Shown: piece by piece, positions 6,143 to 55,791 of the stretch
Numbering within the stretch: position 1 is the stretch's first letter
Layout of the letters: every line of letters starts with the position of its first letter
Source: Candidatus Saccharimonadales bacterium
Lineage (GTDB): Bacteria > Patescibacteriota > Saccharimonadia > Saccharimonadales > OMJO01
Assembly: GCA_035480035.1 (NCBI GenBank)
Contig: DATIID010000001.1
Span: 73,323-137,322, forward strand
Direction: 5' to 3'
Length of the DNA: 64,000 bases
The notes under the pieces: model-generated
The model's input: the letters and a program-made list of their open reading frames with translations, nothing else
Told to the model about the DNA's origin: nothing
The model's database searches: none
Program-made: the position numbers and the translations under genes

Positions 6143-6835
6143 ATGATTTTACTCGATCGGGTAACCAAAACTTACGCTAAAAACAACGCACTAGACCGTA
6201 TCAGTCTGCATGTTGAGCCGAAAGAATTTGTCATTATTATTGGTAAAAGTGGGGCTGGCAAATCAACTTTGCTTAAACTATTGACTCGTGAAGAACTGCC
6301 TAACAGCGGTAAAATTATTGTTGGCGGGTTGGACTATGACAAATTAAAAGACAGTGATATCCCGCTGCTTCGACGTAAAATTGGCGTTGTCTTTCAAGAT
6401 TTTAAATTACTACCCAACCGTAACGCGTATGAAAATGTAGCTTTTGCGCTCGAAATTGTTGGTTATGGCAATAAAGAAATTAAGCACACCGTACCACGAG
6501 TACTTGATATTGTCGGGTTGAAAGGCAAAGAAAAGAGCATGCCACTAGAGCTGTCCGGTGGTGAGCGTCAGCGAGTGGCCATTGCCAGGGCAATTGTTCG
6601 TCAGCCAAAGATTTTGATTGCCGACGAGCCCACTGGCAACCTCGACCCCAAGCACGCTTGGGATGTTATTAAGGTACTCGAAAAAATTAACCGCTTCGGC
6701 ACTACCGTACTATTAACTACTCATAACCAAGAAATCGTTAATCGTTTAAAGCGCCGAGTCATTACTATTGACGAGGGTCGGATTACTAGTGACCGAGCCA
6801 ATGCCGAATATCACCAAAAGAGGCCGGCCGCATGA
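6143..6835 (+). CDS. ftsE: Cell division ABC ATPase FtsE
   Basis: Walker A GKSGAGKST, signature LSGGERQR, Walker B ILIADEPTGNLD. Overlaps ftsX by 4 nt. TGgTATAAT 6127-6135 lies 7 nt before the ATG. Confidence 0.93.
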   Translation: MILLDRVTKTYAKNNALDRISLHVEPKEFVIIIGKSGAGKSTLLKLLTREELPNSGKIIVGGLDYDKLKDSDIPLLRRKIGVVFQDFKLLPNRNAYENVAFALEIVGYGNKEIKHTVPRVLDIVGLKGKEKSMPLELSGGERQRVAIARAIVRQPKILIADEPTGNLDPKHAWDVIKVLEKINRFGTTVLLTTHNQEIVNRLKRRVITIDEGRITSDRANAEYHQKRPAA

Positions 6836-7776
6836 AACGACGGATTATAACTTTTTGGCGAATTATAAAAGCCGGCATTCAAAATTTCTTGCGCAATGCC
6901 ACTTTGGCAGTGGCGGCGATGGCGGTGATGATTATTACGCTGACAATTGTGCTATTTTCAGTTATCGCCAATGCCACCTTTACTCATACGATTCAGCAAA
7001 TAACTGACAAGATTGACATTTCAGTTTATCTAAAAGATTCGGTATCGCCTGAGCAGCGCCAAAAACTAATTAAAGATATATCAGCCATGCCCAATACCAA
7101 GTCGGTCAATTTCATCACTAAAGACCAAGCATTGGAGACCTATAAGAACCAGAACCAAAATAATCTCGATCTACTACAGGCGATTTCACAAACCGACAAT
7201 CCGCTGCCGGCCAGTCTACAAATCAAACCATGGGACCCTAACAAAATTCAGGACCTAAAGACTTACTTGGAGAAACCAGATGTTAAGGCCCTGCAATCAG
7301 ATGAAACGTCATATTCTGGGGCCCGTAAAGAAGCGATTGATAAAATTTCCAAAGCAACAAAGTTTATGCGTGAGGTCGGTCTTGGTGGTGTCATTGTATT
7401 TGCACTAGTGTCGATGTTAATTATCTTTAATACTATTCGTATGGCCATTTTTAACCGCCGCGATGAATTGACGATTATGCGGCTACTTGGCGCAAGCAGT
7501 TGGTATATTCGTGGACCATTTGTGGTTGAAACTATGATTTATGGCATTGTTTCAGCCGTTATTTCGGTGACCCTTTGTAACACTTTGTTTGTCGTCGCTG
7601 CCTCGGCTTTTCAAGCCAGCAGCCTGGGATTACTTGATATTAACTTTTCAAATGACTATTTTGGCCACCATTTTTGGTTAATTTTGACGTCGCAACTCGG
7701 CATTGGTATACTAATCGGTGCCGCTTCATCCTTAATTGCCACGCGGCGTTATCTCAAATTTAAATCTGCTAAATAA
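6832..7776 (+). CDS. ftsX: Cell division permease-like FtsX
   Basis: N-terminal TM, large extracytoplasmic loop, then three C-terminal TM helices (FtsX fold). Translationally coupled to ftsE. Confidence 0.88.
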   Translation: MKRRIITFWRIIKAGIQNFLRNATLAVAAMAVMIITLTIVLFSVIANATFTHTIQQITDKIDISVYLKDSVSPEQRQKLIKDISAMPNTKSVNFITKDQALETYKNQNQNNLDLLQAISQTDNPLPASLQIKPWDPNKIQDLKTYLEKPDVKALQSDETSYSGARKEAIDKISKATKFMREVGLGGVIVFALVSMLIIFNTIRMAIFNRRDELTIMRLLGASSWYIRGPFVVETMIYGIVSAVISVTLCNTLFVVAASAFQASSLGLLDINFSNDYFGHHFWLILTSQLGIGILIGAASSLIATRRYLKFKSAK

Positions 7777-50477: not shown

Positions 50478-51449
50478 TTATAACGCGATTGAGCTGGGGT
50501 CATTGGGGCCCGGAGCTGATGGTGGTGGACTAGGCGGCGTTAAAGTACCTGATGAACCTTCTTTCGCCAGCAAATCATCCAAGTTTGGACCGTCTAATGG
50601 TTGCCCGGTCGGGCTGATAACTTTTTTGTGAACTGGTGGACTATCATCACCCGGTAGTTTGTCCGGTCGTGGTGGCCCGCCAGAAATTGGCGCGTCGTTA
50701 TTATTGTTGCTGGGTGATGGCTGTAGTTGAGGGGTTGGGTCAGTAGTTATTGCTGGTGGAGTTGGCGTATCGGTCTGAGGTGGTGAGCTTAGCGGTGGTG
50801 CAGTTGGGGTTGGTGGCATAGGATCTGGAGTTGGTGGATTGACGCTCGCCACAAAATCATTAATTTGTTTGTTAATTTGGTCTTCTTCATTGGAATTAGT
50901 TTGAGCCAGTGCTGAATCGGCTTTCGGGCCAGTTGACTCGATATTAAGACTTGATAGATCGATTTGTGGTGTGGTGACCGGCGCAGCTGGTATTGTTGGG
51001 GCAGCTGGCACTGGTGGTGTAATTGGGCCGCCGGTTGTGGCGGCGTCGTCGCTGACAACACCGGATGATGACGGACTTGTGGTACCTTCCAGGACTTCTC
51101 TAGCAACTCGGGCCACATCTTCCAATGTGACTTGTGATTTGACAAGATAACGATCAGCGCCTAATTTTTCGGCTCGATTTTTATCTTCGGCTTGAGATAA
51201 GGCGGTCATCATAACCACTTTAGTGTTTTTGGTCTCTTGAGTACCACGCAAAATATCAAGCATATCGAAACCGCTGATTTTAGGCATCATGACGTCAGAA
51301 ATAATTAAGTCCGGCTTTTCTTTGACAGCTAAGGCCAAGGCTTCCTCGCCGTCGCGAGCACTAACGATTTCATAACCCTCTGCTAATAGTCGAGCCTCGT
51401 AAATCTCCCGAAGGTTGTTATCATCCTCGACCAACATTATTTTTGCCAT
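50478..51449 (-). CDS. Response-regulator receiver with ~200-aa Pro-rich low-complexity C-terminal tail (no output domain)
   Basis: Intact REC (VEDDN, IISDVMMP, MMTAL, LVKS), paralogous to 12382-12888. The tail is rich in P/T/S/A (PPTPDPMPPTPTAPPLSSPPQTDTPTPP). Confidence 0.85.
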   Translation of the reverse strand: MAKIMLVEDDNNLREIYEARLLAEGYEIVSARDGEEALALAVKEKPDLIISDVMMPKISGFDMLDILRGTQETKNTKVVMMTALSQAEDKNRAEKLGADRYLVKSQVTLEDVARVAREVLEGTTSPSSSGVVSDDAATTGGPITPPVPAAPTIPAAPVTTPQIDLSSLNIESTGPKADSALAQTNSNEEDQINKQINDFVASVNPPTPDPMPPTPTAPPLSSPPQTDTPTPPAITTDPTPQLQPSPSNNNNDAPISGGPPRPDKLPGDDSPPVHKKVISPTGQPLDGPNLDDLLAKEGSSGTLTPPSPPPSAPGPNDPSSIAL

Positions 51450-52888: not shown

Positions 52889-52992
52889 TTATGGTTTATT
52901 ATCGGTGTTTTAGGGTTAATTTACAACTGTGCCGTCTGGACTTGCCACCCCTGTCATGCTAGTATTACGCCGTTAATGGTTGTGTAAAAGCT

Positions 52993-53069
52993 GGCCCCGT
53001 CGTCTAGCGGTTCAGGATATCTGGTTCTCATCCAGAAGATCGCGGGTTCGAATCCCGCCGGGGTCACCA
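52993..53069 (+). tRNA. tRNA-Glu (anticodon CUC), CCA encoded
   Basis: Cloverleaf by hand: acceptor GGCCCCG/CGGGGTC (one GU), D-arm GTCTAGCGGTTCAGGA, anticodon stem TCTGG/CCAGA with loop TTCTCAT, T-arm GCGGGTTCGAATCCCGC, discriminator A plus CCA. Confidence 0.93.
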
Positions 53070-53090
53070 AAGTTCGCTATAATAAGTTTA

Positions 53091-53672
53091 ATGAAAAATT
53101 TTATTAAGAAATACATCAATGTTTTTTTAGTGGTGCTACTAGTTAGCTTCATCTATAGTTCGATTTACACTACTGCTCAGCAGGTCTTAAGAATGGACGC
53201 CAATGACCCTCAGATTCAGATGGCCGAGGACACTGCCGCCAAACTCGATGAACACTTCAAGCCCCAAGCTTTAACTGGCCGATATATTGACGTGGGTCGT
53301 AGCCTAGCACCATTCATTATCATTTACGACAAATCTGGCGAAGTTGTGGCTGGTTCTGGCTATTTGGATAACCGAGTGCCGAAAGTCCCTCTTGGGGTTC
53401 TTAAGCACTCTGAAAATAAGACAAATGGCAACCGGGTAACTTGGCAACTGAGCGGTAATGTCCGCATTGCTTCAGTGACTGTAGCGACACGTCATTATTA
53501 TGTGTTAGCCGGTCGTAATCTACGTGAAGTTGAAAACCGCGCGAACGACGTCTTAAAGATGGTGACCTTTAGCTGGATTATTTCTCTACTGACTGTTGGT
53601 GTATTTTATAAACTTAAAATTCACCCTGACATTCCTGAAAAGAAACTATCGAAGAATTTGCACAAGCGGTAG
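53091..53672 (+). CDS. Hypothetical bitopic membrane protein
   Basis: The tracked ORF (52980) runs through the tRNA. The in-frame ATG 53091 is preceded by TATAAT (53078-53083) plus 7 nt. TM helices at both ends. Confidence 0.55.
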   Translation: MKNFIKKYINVFLVVLLVSFIYSSIYTTAQQVLRMDANDPQIQMAEDTAAKLDEHFKPQALTGRYIDVGRSLAPFIIIYDKSGEVVAGSGYLDNRVPKVPLGVLKHSENKTNGNRVTWQLSGNVRIASVTVATRHYYVLAGRNLREVENRANDVLKMVTFSWIISLLTVGVFYKLKIHPDIPEKKLSKNLHKR

Positions 53673-54923
53673 CTCCTGCCAATTCGACACGTAGCGTGGA
53701 CTGAGCAAGCGATGCTTGGGCTGCCAATTATCACCTAAATCCTCAGTTGCCCAACGAATGGTACGCTTGCCCCAGCGGTTATTGATCTGGTCAATCATAT
53801 TCATCTTAATCTTGGAACGATCAAAGCCTGTTGGATTGACGTAACCTAACAAGTCAGTCTGCAATCGGCTAGCCGGCACAAAATCATATAGCCAGACACC
53901 AGCCCGATGATACAGTTGCCGCTGATCATAAATTTGACTAAATTGACTAACTAATCGGCTCAGTATCAACCCCGTGTCAGCCGTTGGTGTCGAAAACTTA
54001 ATTTCCCTTGTCCACGACCGGTAACCGGGTTTATGACGACTAGTGGTTAAGAATAAACCGGCCCGACGTGTTAGTTGATCTTCACGGCGCAAGCGGTAAG
54101 CTGCACCAGCGGCGAAGTTAGCCAGCGCCGCTTCAATAACGCCGGCATTGTTGGTATCCTCACCAAAAGTACGGGTCCGGGCAATGCTTTGCTGTAATTT
54201 GCCTTCACGCTGTAAGCCATAACATGGGACACCGTTTAGCTCGGCCACCATTTGCCGGCCATGAATGCCCATTAATTGTTGAGCAAATTGTGGCGACAAC
54301 TCCGATAGCTGCCAAGCATTACTAATACCTTCGGCTTTAAGCCGTGGCGCCAGCCGCCAGCCAACGCCCCAAATGTCTTGAATAGCCGTATTAGCCAAAA
54401 ACTGCTGCGGCCATTTTGGTAGGGCCAGCACGCCGTTATGTTCGGGGTGTTTTTTAGCATATTCGCTGGCTAGTTTGGCCAGGGTTTTAGTTGGGGCAAT
54501 ACCAATCGACACTGGAATGCCAACCCAATCAAGGATTTTTTGCCGAACTACGCGTCCCCAGGCTGGATAATCTTTAATCTTTAGTTGGCTGAGGTCTAAA
54601 AATGATTCATCAACTGAATAAACTTCAATGCGCGGTGTAATACTGGTTAGTAGCATGGCAATTCGTTTACTAATATCACCATAGAGTTCAAAATTAGCTG
54701 AAAATTGAATCACACAGTGGTCTTTAAATAATTGGCGGTACTTAAAGGCTGGTGCCCCCATTGGGATACCAAGAGCTTTAGCTTCATTACTGCGGGCTAC
54801 GGCACACCCGTCATTACTCGATAAGACTACCACTGGCTGGCCTTCTAAATCTGGCCGAAAAACTTTCTCGCAGCTAACGAAGAAGTTATTACAATCAATT
54901 AGTGCAAAAATTGGCTTACGCAT
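53646..54923 (-). CDS. umuC: Y-family DNA polymerase, UmuC-like
   Basis: IDCNNFFVSCE, SVDESFLD, little-finger region. Follows the umuD-like gene with a 1-nt overlap. Confidence 0.9.
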   Translation of the reverse strand: MRKPIFALIDCNNFFVSCEKVFRPDLEGQPVVVLSSNDGCAVARSNEAKALGIPMGAPAFKYRQLFKDHCVIQFSANFELYGDISKRIAMLLTSITPRIEVYSVDESFLDLSQLKIKDYPAWGRVVRQKILDWVGIPVSIGIAPTKTLAKLASEYAKKHPEHNGVLALPKWPQQFLANTAIQDIWGVGWRLAPRLKAEGISNAWQLSELSPQFAQQLMGIHGRQMVAELNGVPCYGLQREGKLQQSIARTRTFGEDTNNAGVIEAALANFAAGAAYRLRREDQLTRRAGLFLTTSRHKPGYRSWTREIKFSTPTADTGLILSRLVSQFSQIYDQRQLYHRAGVWLYDFVPASRLQTDLLGYVNPTGFDRSKIKMNMIDQINNRWGKRTIRWATEDLGDNWQPKHRLLSPRYVSNWQELPLVQILR

Positions 54924-55273
54924 CAGTAGTCCCGGTATGGATGGATAGTCGTGGTGACTACGCCCCAGTGCGATGTACCCTGGGGTAGCCGTGACGGCAG
55001 ACTAATCACAAATGATTCGCCTTGCCACCAAACAATTAAATCATTCGGTCGAGCGTCAACCACCCGGTCGACAATAATAATATCGCCGGCAAATATGCCG
55101 CTTGACTGCCAATCGTTACCACTGATACGCATAAAGTAAGTCCCGGCCATATGTTTTACCAGTAAGCGGTTAAGATCCAAACTATCCAGCGAGCCGTCAA
55201 GCGCTGGATTTGGGAAACCTGCGTGGACCGATACGCCGTCCAAGTCGCCGCTGGTTAGTTTTGAGCCAATCAT
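54923..55273 (-). CDS. umuD: UmuD-like S24-fold protein lacking the Ser/Lys catalytic dyad
   Basis: Aligns to E. coli UmuD (AGFPNPA..., TYFMRISGNDW vs TYFVKASGDSM, GESFVISL vs GEFTVKKL). This gives S60->D and K97->I. 116 aa. Confidence 0.8.
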   Translation of the reverse strand: MIGSKLTSGDLDGVSVHAGFPNPALDGSLDSLDLNRLLVKHMAGTYFMRISGNDWQSSGIFAGDIIIVDRVVDARPNDLIVWWQGESFVISLPSRLPQGTSHWGVVTTTIHPYRDY

Positions 55274-55512
55274 GACAGTGCCTTTCGGTTAACCAATGTC
55301 CATTGATTGTCTTCCAGGCGCAAGCGGAACAACTGTTGACCATCAGTCATGTCAAACAGCCGAACTAAGTGCTGACCGGTTTGGATTAAGTACTGCAAAC
55401 CGCTATCGATAAATGAGTAGGACCTATCGTCAACTGTGATAGTCCGCGGCACGCTTTTAATACCTCGTTTATTAACAAAGGTGTAAGCGTTAATTTCAAT
55501 TTCGTGATTCAT
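55270..55512 (-). CDS. Small hypothetical protein, first gene of the umuDC-like operon
   Basis: ATG 55512, 7 nt after an AAGGAG SD (the tracked TTG 55518 is too close to the SD). The stop overlaps the umuD-like start (ATGA). Confidence 0.5.
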   Translation of the reverse strand: MNHEIEINAYTFVNKRGIKSVPRTITVDDRSYSFIDSGLQYLIQTGQHLVRLFDMTDGQQLFRLRLEDNQWTLVNRKALS

Positions 55513-55791
55513 TTTCAAACTCCTTATAAAATTACAAATAAACTGGTTAAGGTTATTACCAGTAAACGGCTTTTAAGGACAGGAGCTGCTTGCCAAGTCT
55601 GCTTAACCGTTCCTAAGCGGCTTGAAATACAAGAAGCTGGTGTTTGTAATTGGACTAGCAGGGACCGAAGTGTGCAAAGTCCGAAGTTTGAAAAGCCTGT
55701 GAGTGGATGGTCGAATCGACTCATACCCACATGACTAATGCTTATTTTGAGCCGCTGAACCGGCTTTGACAAGTCTGGAAAATTCTAAAAT

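Follow-up and report, generated by a model that had tools for sequence, protein, structure and literature searches.

We analyzed a 64,000-nucleotide (nt) stretch of DNA from a Candidatus Saccharimonadales bacterium (assembly GCA_035480035.1, contig DATIID010000001.1, positions 73,323 to 137,322; hereafter the window) and describe a three-gene operon on its reverse strand. The operon encodes a small protein that we call SOF, a UmuD-like protein and a UmuC-type Y-family DNA polymerase. In the reading that we prefer, to which we assign a probability of about 0.55 on the basis of sequence, these genes specify a Pol V-like mutasome in which UmuD is a scaffold that cannot be cleaved, and which is controlled by a leader RNA. 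A structured 5' leader of ~230 nt, SOF, the UmuD-derived subunit and UmuC would then form a single translesion-synthesis operon expressed from one promoter. The link to DNA damage is suggested by gene content, namely UmuC in the window, and a DinB-like polymerase and SRAP proteins in related loci.

The three open reading frames (ORFs) are closely packed, and all positions below are those of the window. SOF (80 amino acids (aa); 55270..55512, - strand) has its ATG at 55512, preceded at a 7-nt spacer by the Shine-Dalgarno sequence AAGGAG (55525..55520). It is followed by the UmuD-like ORF (116 aa; 54923..55273, -) and the UmuC ORF (425 aa; 53646..54923, -). An earlier note made from this DNA (hereafter the original prediction) had reported the 80-aa ORF with its good Shine-Dalgarno sequence and ATGA overlap, as well as the order small ORF, umuD-like, umuC, and our reading of the ORFs agreed with it on both counts. 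The SOF/umuD-like junction is an ATGA overlap and the umuD-like/umuC junction a one-base overlap (TGATG), which suggests translational coupling; the same overlaps were observed in the related loci L041 and L043. The start/stop overlaps and the Shine-Dalgarno sequence were conserved among relatives, and in more than 30 homologs the ORFs of the operon were intact and of constant length. Ratios of nonsynonymous to synonymous substitution rates (dN/dS), taken at unsaturated dS, had medians of 0.27 for SOF and 0.21 for the UmuD-like gene and were ~0.12 for umuC (3 pairs); these values are approximate, as dS was large. All three genes are under purifying selection. In public records the three products are annotated as “hypothetical protein”, “S24 family peptidase” (the UmuD-like protein, HSX44618.1) and “Y-family DNA polymerase”.

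Profile comparisons identify the 116-aa protein as a true UmuD/S24 homolog. An alignment to the Pfam Peptidase_S24 profile (PF00717), as the original prediction had proposed, gave 35.1 bits against a gathering score of 23.3 and so confirmed the homology, with the catalytic dyad absent. Residues 15–85 aligned to profile positions 5–74 of 116, and the match is limited to this part of the profile because of a deletion of ~19 residues that is described below. The protein also matched the NCBIfam UmuD model PRK10276 (1.2e-17; 64 bits, under the cut-off of 110) and the “UmuD-like protein” family of PHROG (811; 7e-20). UmuD and UmuD' chains were its best matches in a profile search of the PDB, in which the profile itself contained E. 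coli UmuD. The score against the NCBIfam HumD model NF051876 was 33 bits with a cut-off of 120, so it is not a member of that family.

To compare the catalytic positions, 35 homologs and E. coli UmuD were aligned with MAFFT and HMMER and compared with PDB entries 8gmt and 1umu; the clade of the window protein comprised 32 of these sequences. The E. coli GDSM motif fell on G52-N53-D54-W55, so that the nucleophile Ser60 is replaced by Asp54, as had been predicted. The general base Lys97 had been read as replaced by Ile. The lysine is indeed absent, but the register of that reading was off by one: with Phe94 anchored on Phe88, Lys97 corresponds to Ser91, and Ile90 to Val96. The window protein has only two lysines, K5 and K40. 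Across the clade, the Ser60 column held Asp in 15 sequences, Glu in five, Gln in three, Thr and Leu in two each, and Val, Asn, Gly, Ser and His in one each. That this column varies freely implies that no nucleophile is selected there. The Lys97 column held Ser (20), Gly (8), Cys (3) or Thr (1), and the Met61 column was Trp in 32/32. No column with a conserved Lys or Ser was found anywhere in the clade alignment, and a dyad retained at shifted positions, which the original prediction had named as a way in which it could be wrong, is therefore excluded. By this alignment the loss of the Ser-Lys dyad is clade-wide, affecting all 32 members, and not a one-off. Because the dyad is missing, the UmuD-like protein is predicted to be unable to process itself by the S24 autoproteolytic mechanism, and on this central point the original prediction stands. 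The label “S24 family peptidase” for the UmuD-like proteins of this clade is probably wrong.

Ala18-Gly19 occupies the position of E. coli Cys24-Gly25, which bears out the earlier remark that an Ala-Gly dipeptide lies there. Gly19 was invariant among the 32 sequences and the residue before it was Ala in 20, Thr in six, Val in three, Asp in two and Ser in one; this variation argues against a conserved cleavage site, and thus against the processing in trans that had been offered as one outcome. Gly19 is also the first residue of the arm motif Gly-Phe-Pro-Asn-Pro-Ala (GFPNPA), which was invariant or nearly so across the clade, and the GVSVHAG segment ahead of Ala18-Gly19 was conserved. In every clade member ~19 residues, equivalent to E. 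coli UmuD ~102–120, were deleted between the Lys97 strand and the C-terminal strand, while the 18-residue N-terminal segment ahead of Gly19 was retained. The protein is short because of this internal deletion and not because of N-terminal loss, so its similarity in size to processed UmuD', from which the original prediction had argued, is a coincidence. A UmuD-like gene directly upstream of umuC was also found in loci L005, L006, L007, L012, L017, L033, L041 and L043.

Two further ideas about this protein were considered and rejected. A substitute catalytic pair, formed by Asp at the Ser60 position and Ser at the Lys97 position with the conserved His17/His111, does not fit the clade, in which Ser91 is Gly in 8/32 and Asp54 is variable. 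A phage origin was dropped since the closest phage relatives were ordinary UmuD-like proteins with ~35–49% identity. Separately, two other homologs were noted. One is a UmuD-like stretch in a phage record from a human-gut contig (MT836424.1:5132-5437); its alignment covers 86% of the window protein and lacks the ~19-residue insertion, so that it may represent a further short form. The other is P0033 (121 aa), a metagenomic and more distant homolog of UmuD that starts with MTTGFPNPA at the cleavage-site Gly, has a full C-terminal region, and carries Thr at the Ser60 position and Arg at the Lys97 position; it may be a naturally pre-truncated UmuD'-like form.

The polymerase encoded by the third gene showed no comparable losses. 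It matched the Pfam domains IMS (2e-36), IMS_C (4e-18) and DUF4113 (3e-15), the last of which represents the C-terminal tail of UmuC. Among NCBIfam models it matched UmuC PRK03609 best (5e-100; 335 bits, under the 431 cut-off). The motifs ALIDCNNFF and YSVDESF, read from the translation, were intact; going by the motifs of the family, they contain the equivalents of the E. coli catalytic residues Asp6, Asp101 and Glu102. Judged by these motifs, UmuC is catalytically intact. In models of E. coli Pol V the UmuD' N-terminal arm inserts into UmuC, and the arm, core and C-terminal strand of UmuD' and the UmuC tail form contacts (PMC6511836, PMC12926913).

Upstream of SOF, a stretch of ~280 base pairs (bp) that would pass for intergenic DNA was conserved in orthologous loci, with changes that preserve base pairs. 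It contains an RNA leader whose core of ~176 nt (55563..55738, -) comprises three helical elements, P1, P2 and P3, and a 3' CCGUUU strand, as delimited by a covariance model (R1) that was built from 27 sequences with a manually assigned structure. The window leader scored 149.5 bits against this model (E=1.2e-37). A covariance search of 40 loci (380 kilobases (kb)) gave exactly one leader match per locus, 40/40, and always just upstream of SOF, including upstream of solitary SOF genes. When metagenomes were searched with the RNA pattern alone, five further leaders were found, and SOF followed in 4/4 that could be checked. The leader, which the original prediction had not noticed, is the most constant partner of SOF. 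Upstream of it lies a sigma-70-like promoter (TTGTCA, 17 nt, CAAAAT; 55744..55772, -) located by a consensus scan. Among 11 orthologous upstream regions the -35 and -10 columns of this promoter were conserved and the spacer was variable, and no palindromic operator was conserved in or around it.

The leader RNA is real: it covaries and it accompanies every SOF gene examined. In the model-fitted alignment, 84.9% of cells at paired positions were paired, compared with 30–42% when the partners were slid, and double changes occurred at 32 of the 39 leader pairs; none of 500 shuffles matched the observed values. An alignment fitted to the model favours the structure, but one made with MAFFT only already contained these exchanges for P1, P2 and the outer helix of P3. 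The minimum free energy (MFE) z-score of the window leader was -4.53. At gathering score, the 4227 families of Rfam 15 identified only a transfer RNA (tRNA) in the window. Against the window leader itself Rfam 15 gave nothing relevant at E<=10, against six other loci nothing at E<=1, and we found no description of the motif in the literature.

P1 (55694..55736, -) is an irregular hairpin formed by AGUC/GGCU and UGUGGGU/ACUCACA with a variable tip. Its helix 1 was 93% paired with two-sided changes in 10/11 pairs, the innermost pair being UA in 27 sequences, GC in 7 and CG in 5. P2 (55652..55682, -) consists of three stacked short helices with a near-invariant GGUCMCUG. These helices (3–5) were 81–97% paired, with GC/AU/CG exchanges at pairs 129:196, 131:194 and 135:189. 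P3 (55584..55638, -) is a long irregular hairpin whose conserved loop, GAACGG, lies at 55607..55612; its outer helix was 94% paired with double changes in 5/7 pairs. Folded alone with RNAfold, P3 formed one long end-closed hairpin in 32 of 39 distinct sequences, and GAACGG was cleanly apical in 19 of the 39 folds. The remaining sequences were the weakest cmsearch matches or a cut record. The GAACGG loop is complementary to CCGUUU (55564..55569, -), the proposed 3' strand of a pseudoknot. The GAACGG:CCGUUC pairing was kept in 97% of cells, with variation mostly from A-U or G-C to G.U and two changes from A-U to G-C.

Three other explanations for parts of the leader were rejected. GAACGG and CCGTTC could be read as half-sites of a Cheo box, a type of LexA box, but they lie ~35–55 nt apart at a variable distance inside the transcript, and their changes preserve RNA pairing. 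A leader peptide in P1 (AUG-UGG-GUA-UGA) becomes AUG-UGA in relatives and is not coding. A match to the Pistol ribozyme was spurious: it scored 21.9 bits, where the threshold is 34.5, and skipped 33 positions of the model.

Downstream of and between these elements the leader has features of an expression platform. In the MFE fold of the window leader, the segment joining P1 and P2 (J1/2; (U)UUUCAAACUUC, 55683..55693, -) was paired with GGAGUUUGAAAA in the ribosome-binding region (55512..55525, -; AAGGAG, 7 nt, ATG), and J1/2 thus represents a candidate anti-ribosome-binding-site segment. The duplex between J1/2 and the ribosome-binding site (RBS) had a mean energy of -10.0 kcal/mol for cognate pairs and -7.2 kcal/mol for non-cognate pairs, and 0/10000 permutations gave a value as low. 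Compensated variants were found in L014 (UUCAAGCUC/GAGCUUGAA) and L020 (AUAAGAUUUUC/GAGAAUCUUAU), and compensations at multiple positions occurred in L014, L016 and L020. The AGGAG, UU and AUG columns were invariant at the ribosome-binding region in two alignments (A5 and A6). RNAalifold had instead paired the 5' arm of P3 with the Shine-Dalgarno sequence; this was superseded by the J1/2-RBS pairing, which shows compensatory changes. Directly after the core, the leader has a terminator-like hairpin (55527..55563, -; ACUGGU, a 10-nt loop, ACCAGU and a U-rich tail). In a relaxed scan, 23/30 leaders had a perfectly paired hairpin of 5 bp or more immediately following CCGUUN, with at least 5 U in the 9 nt after it, and the hairpin stem covaries. 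There was some variety in this region among divergent leaders: those in L017, L033, L043, L019 and L022 have an extra 40–60 nt with a GC-rich hairpin just before the Shine-Dalgarno sequence, and the leader in L030 is without the terminator-like hairpin. A conserved core with varied output devices is the look of a cis-regulatory RNA.

SOF itself is a genuine gene family that was encountered only in records of Saccharimonadales/Patescibacteria. The original prediction had recognized that it would fail if the small ORF were not conserved in relatives; SOF has 19 close homologs at 58–100% identity, with a mean column identity of 72%. A scan of 185,579 species genomes with peptide patterns from these homologs identified 31 loci, which were labeled Saccharimonadales, Saccharibacteria, Patescibacteria or carried no label. 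A profile scan of 1.84 billion protein representatives gave 111 matches, of which ~95 were cluster representatives of 75–110 aa. The long proteins among the matches (e.g., P0074, 1163 aa, with nine matching stretches) were spurious, as they contain low-complexity repeats that match a beta-hairpin motif. Proteins of the family are mildly basic (median isoelectric point 9.1) and rich in conserved aromatics. An AlphaFold2 model from a 74-sequence alignment was all-beta with seven strands and a predicted local distance difference test score (pLDDT) of 89.9. An earlier model from 19 sequences (pLDDT 66) had an apparently disordered N-terminus, which the larger alignment turned into a strand; for this reason we no longer consider that SOF has a free N-terminal arm as YqjX does.

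No match to the SOF family was found in Pfam, NCBIfam, PHROG or PADLOC, and Foldseek searches of the PDB and BFVD with the SOF fold returned nothing at E<0.05 and no convincing template modeling score (TM-score). A single family member matched DUF6504 at E=0.044, and we found no literature on DUF6504. That SOF is a diverged UmuD domain was rejected based on a profile-profile comparison of the two families (probability 1%). The original prediction had likened the small protein to those of the YolD type, and this likeness was not upheld: none of 75 family members matched YolD (PF08863) at E<=1 or any other relevant Pfam model, and the window SOF had no Pfam match.

The genomic contexts of SOF were surveyed with tblastn and gene calls over 44 loci, and polymerase linkage was counted among ~38 SOF loci. 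Three classes were observed. Class A, found in the window and about 10 loci, has SOF, the dyad-less UmuD and UmuC. Class B, in about 10 loci, has SOF followed by an 88-aa SOF paralog that overlaps the start of a 412-aa DinB-like polymerase. In class C, with 15 loci, SOF stands alone among unrelated neighbors. The DinB-like polymerase matched NCBIfam Pol IV models (1e-56), and Pfam did not find DUF4113 in it, unlike in UmuC. In L001 the paralog (6256-6522, +), which is 29% identical to the window SOF, takes the place of the UmuD-like protein directly upstream of the DinB-like polymerase, with a 17-nt overlap with the polymerase start. L014 has two SOF paralogs, and its DinB-like polymerase matches are split (6446-7512; aa 1–114 and 204–412 by tblastn), which may reflect either gene disruption or an error in the assembly.

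Mean SOF identity was 66% within class A, 69% within class B and 64% between the two, and the SOF nearest to that of the window came from a class B locus (80% identity). By these comparisons the sequence of SOF is independent of cassette type, and SOF would therefore be the constant element and the second small gene the polymerase-specific one. The original prediction had proposed a survey of whether the dyad changes and the small ORF co-occur in relatives. The dyad is lost in all clade members, but SOF also occurs with the DinB-like cassette or alone. The earlier proposal that the small ORF encodes a new accessory or regulatory subunit is supported insofar as SOF is conserved and recurrently linked to Y-family polymerases, but SOF is not specific to the umuDC operon. 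SRAP genes (PF02586, SOS-response-associated peptidase) were found near the SOF/polymerase cluster in seven loci (L042:2820-3482, -, and L008, L011, L013, L014, L021 and L039). In five class B loci the SRAP gene is located between SOF and its paralog but in the opposite orientation, and is not part of the operon transcript for that reason; in two further loci it adjoins SOF or the umuD-like gene. SRAP is absent from the window.

In the mechanism that we propose, the UmuD-like protein would be a permanently uncleaved, non-enzymatic scaffold for UmuC, keeping its GFPNPA arm motif, beta core and C-terminal strand, as UmuC keeps its tail. There would be neither proteolytic activation nor the checkpoint that RecA*-triggered cleavage imposes on Pol V in E. 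coli. Control would instead have shifted to the mRNA leader, which probably regulates expression in place of the classical cleavage switch: the RBS would be held in a long-range helix, and the terminator-like hairpin would cause premature termination. An effector acting on the P1-P2-P3/pseudoknot core would lift this block. We favor SOF, or a complex containing it, as this effector because the one-to-one pairing of RNA and SOF resembles that of autoregulatory leaders, and a leader-acting or general damage-response protein is a more likely role for SOF than a polymerase-specific subunit. Leader and SOF would together form a constant module, behind which stands either the dead UmuD with UmuC or the SOF paralog with the DinB-like polymerase, with or without SRAP.

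Several points weigh against this proposal. Covariation in the pseudoknot is weak, there being too little variation for statistical support; the J1/2-RBS helix is weak in ~8/26 leaders; and the window hairpin, with 6 bp and a 10-nt loop, fails a strict terminator scan owing to its loop length. Binding of the UmuD-like protein to UmuC is putative, and any binding of SOF to UmuC is hypothetical. The 18-residue N-terminal segment that the protein retains might prevent it from working like UmuD', as is the case for full-length UmuD in E. coli. Neither lexA nor recA was found within the 64-kb window, to which this check was limited. Lastly, at 15 of the ~38 loci no Y-family polymerase lies within 5 kb of SOF, which may therefore be unrelated to translesion synthesis.

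That last observation invites a rather unlikely alternative, in which SOF and the leader make up a unit of their own, with no connection to DNA damage, and polymerase cassettes have landed downstream of it in a recombination-prone slot, their co-transcription being incidental. The unrelated neighbors of the solitary SOF genes fit this explanation, as do the failure of SOF sequence to co-vary with polymerase type and the presence of both cassette types in the same syntenic slot, often with tRNA-Glu beyond. However, SOF is linked to a Y-family polymerase in ~23/38 loci, and the link survives rearrangement, since in L022 the gene order is umuD-like, umuC, leader, SOF. The SOF paralog directly upstream of, and overlapping, the DinB-like gene also speaks for a functional connection, as does the recurrence of SRAP, a DNA-damage protein, beside SOF in 7 loci. 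Furthermore, between the leader hairpin and the SOF RBS there is no space for a promoter, and SOF and the umuD-like gene are joined by their ATGA overlap. A serious rival, though the less likely one, is that the leader is instead a riboswitch for a small molecule (a metabolite or ion) and SOF simply the gene it regulates. The core, with its three helices, its pseudoknot and its strongly conserved joining nucleotides, would suit a riboswitch, and expression platforms that differ by lineage (terminator-like hairpin, RBS pairing, extra hairpins) are a riboswitch hallmark. Riboswitches usually control several kinds of gene, whereas this RNA occurs upstream of one protein family only, in all 40 loci and all four RNA-first matches that could be checked, as is typical of autoregulatory protein-binding leaders, and it matches no Rfam class. 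A bolder form of our own proposal, drawn by analogy with the autoregulation of phage T4 gene 32, would make leader and SOF a self-contained damage-sensing switch that replaces LexA/RecA*-cleavage logic. SOF would bind its own leader at the P3-loop pseudoknot core and repress the operon; upon replication stress, single-stranded or damaged DNA would titrate SOF, freeing the RBS and allowing read-through into the attached translesion cassette. We consider this version unlikely.

The remaining alternatives concern the UmuD-like protein. It is very unlikely that the protein is activated in trans at Ala18-Gly19 by another S24 protein (LexA or a canonical UmuD paralog) or by an unrelated protease. 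Intermolecular cleavage is known in E. coli UmuD dimers and counts in favor of this idea, along with the invariance of Gly19, the prevalence of Ala before it (20/32) and the conserved GVSVHAG. Yet the residue before Gly19 is Thr, Val, Asp or Ser in 12/32 clade members, none of which is, to our knowledge, a LexA/UmuD-type cleavage residue, and the conservation of Gly19 is explained by its position at the start of the invariant arm motif. In addition, the ~19-residue deletion lies in the C-terminal domain that bears the catalytic residues in UmuD and LexA, and no second S24 gene is present in the 64-kb window. That the cluster is a decaying group of pseudogenes, with the dyad loss a part of the decay, was an outcome that the original prediction had allowed for and is hardly credible. 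The lost catalytic residues, the internal deletion and the two tblastn pieces of the DinB-like gene in L014 could be read in this way. Against them stand ORFs that are intact and uniform in length across more than 30 homologs, dN/dS of 0.1–0.3 for all three genes, conserved start/stop overlaps and Shine-Dalgarno sequences, and intact UmuC catalytic motifs.

Comparison with known systems places the window operon nearest to E. coli Pol V (UmuD'2C-RecA-ATP), which it resembles in composition. In both, a umuD-like gene lies directly upstream of umuC and overlaps it, the small subunit has an S24 fold, a GFP(S/N)PA arm motif and a C-terminal strand, and UmuC has IMS, IMS_C and DUF4113. Several layers of control restrain Pol V in E. 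coli, and UmuD cleavage triggered by RecA* is a central one. Unlike its E. coli counterpart, the window protein has neither Ser60 nor Lys97 and would not undergo this stimulated self-cleavage, and it has lost ~19 residues. With both defining residues absent, it falls outside the autoproteolytic UmuD family on sequence grounds. The window operon also has SOF as an extra first gene and a structured RNA leader, and its promoter is without a conserved operator, whereas that of E. coli umuDC has a LexA box. Phage P1 HumD, described as a homolog of UmuD' that is produced lacking the N-terminal segment (McLenigan et al. 1999, cited in PMC4713147), is likewise a UmuD-type subunit that would need no activation by cleavage. 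HumD achieves this through the missing segment; in the window protein 18 residues still precede Gly19, and it is the catalytic residues that have been lost.

The YolD/YqjX proteins, small proteins encoded upstream of the Firmicutes YqjW/UvrX polymerases, have been proposed as polymerase partners (PMC6511836, PMC12926913), and a recent polymerase survey indicates that unrelated small subunits can serve as partners of Y-family polymerases (PMC12926913). SOF is also a small beta-rich protein encoded just upstream of such a polymerase, but the parallel is one of gene position only: SOF has no similarity to YolD, is not specific to one polymerase type, can stand alone and always has an RNA leader. 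The leader itself has much in common with autoregulatory leaders, such as those of ribosomal proteins and T4 gene 32, and with riboswitches, including a covarying 5' untranslated region, a pseudoknot, a terminator-like hairpin and sequestration of the RBS. As with autoregulatory leaders, it is strictly one-to-one with one gene family. Phage T4 gene 32 has a 5' pseudoknot and is autoregulated, a comparison that we intend as an analogy only. In contrast to these systems, the SOF leader matches none of the 4227 Rfam families, and binding of a protein or ligand to it is putative. SRAP proteins of the YedK/HMCES type have been associated with UmuC-like polymerases (PMC12926913; Aravind et al. 2013, PMC3765255). 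The SRAP genes inside or beside the SOF/polymerase cluster agree with this association, but differ in being on the opposite strand in the related loci and absent from the window. The 2026 survey of bacterial polymerases distinguished 11 mutasome types from complete representative genomes (PMC12926913); a search of its text found no mention of Patescibacteria, Saccharibacteria or the Candidate Phyla Radiation (CPR).

The surroundings of the operon were partly shared with related loci. The window and L001 have common flanks, with a histidine kinase and a response regulator upstream and a PAS kinase and a response regulator downstream. A tRNA-Glu(CUC) (52993..53069, +; ARAGORN and Rfam) lies at the distal flank of the polymerase cassette, convergent to the end of umuC. 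A tRNA-Glu was found beyond the polymerase in both cassette types, at ~20–600 bp in L001, L011, L012 and L013 and farther away in L005 and L007. A 230-aa ORF (52980..53672, +) starts inside the window tRNA and overlaps the 3' end of umuC by 27 nt. Its first ~35 codons are spurious, its true start is probably MKNFIKKY, and it matched no NCBIfam family. The response regulator at 50478..51449 (-) has a normal receiver domain followed by a tail of ~200 residues that is rich in Pro, Thr and Ser and of low complexity. No output domain was recognizable in it, and its syntenic counterpart in L001 (305 aa) likewise matched only Response_reg. Upstream of the syntenic two-component genes, L001 encodes a 244-aa WhiB-domain protein (1709-2443, -) together with a DUF3048 protein and a helicase of the PIF1 type. 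Elsewhere WhiB is characteristic of Actinobacteria, which are the usual Saccharibacteria hosts.

These data indicate that a clade of Saccharimonadales keeps UmuC and a UmuD-derived partner without protease chemistry, which would mean that the scaffold role of UmuD is separable from its role as a switch and that the cleavage checkpoint of a Pol V-type polymerase may be dispensable. Two components of the system are without a precedent that we could find: SOF, which has a confidently predicted structure and no detectable relatives, and its covarying leader RNA. Each is associated with translesion polymerases and SRAP in reduced Saccharimonadales genomes, in which regulation is poorly understood. 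The polymerase cassettes appear to be interchangeable behind one constant control module, and the SOF loci thus represent a natural experiment in the recruitment of error-prone polymerases. If SOF and the leader do form a switch, this would be the first RNA-leader-controlled mutasome, built around a protein family and an RNA class that are both new.

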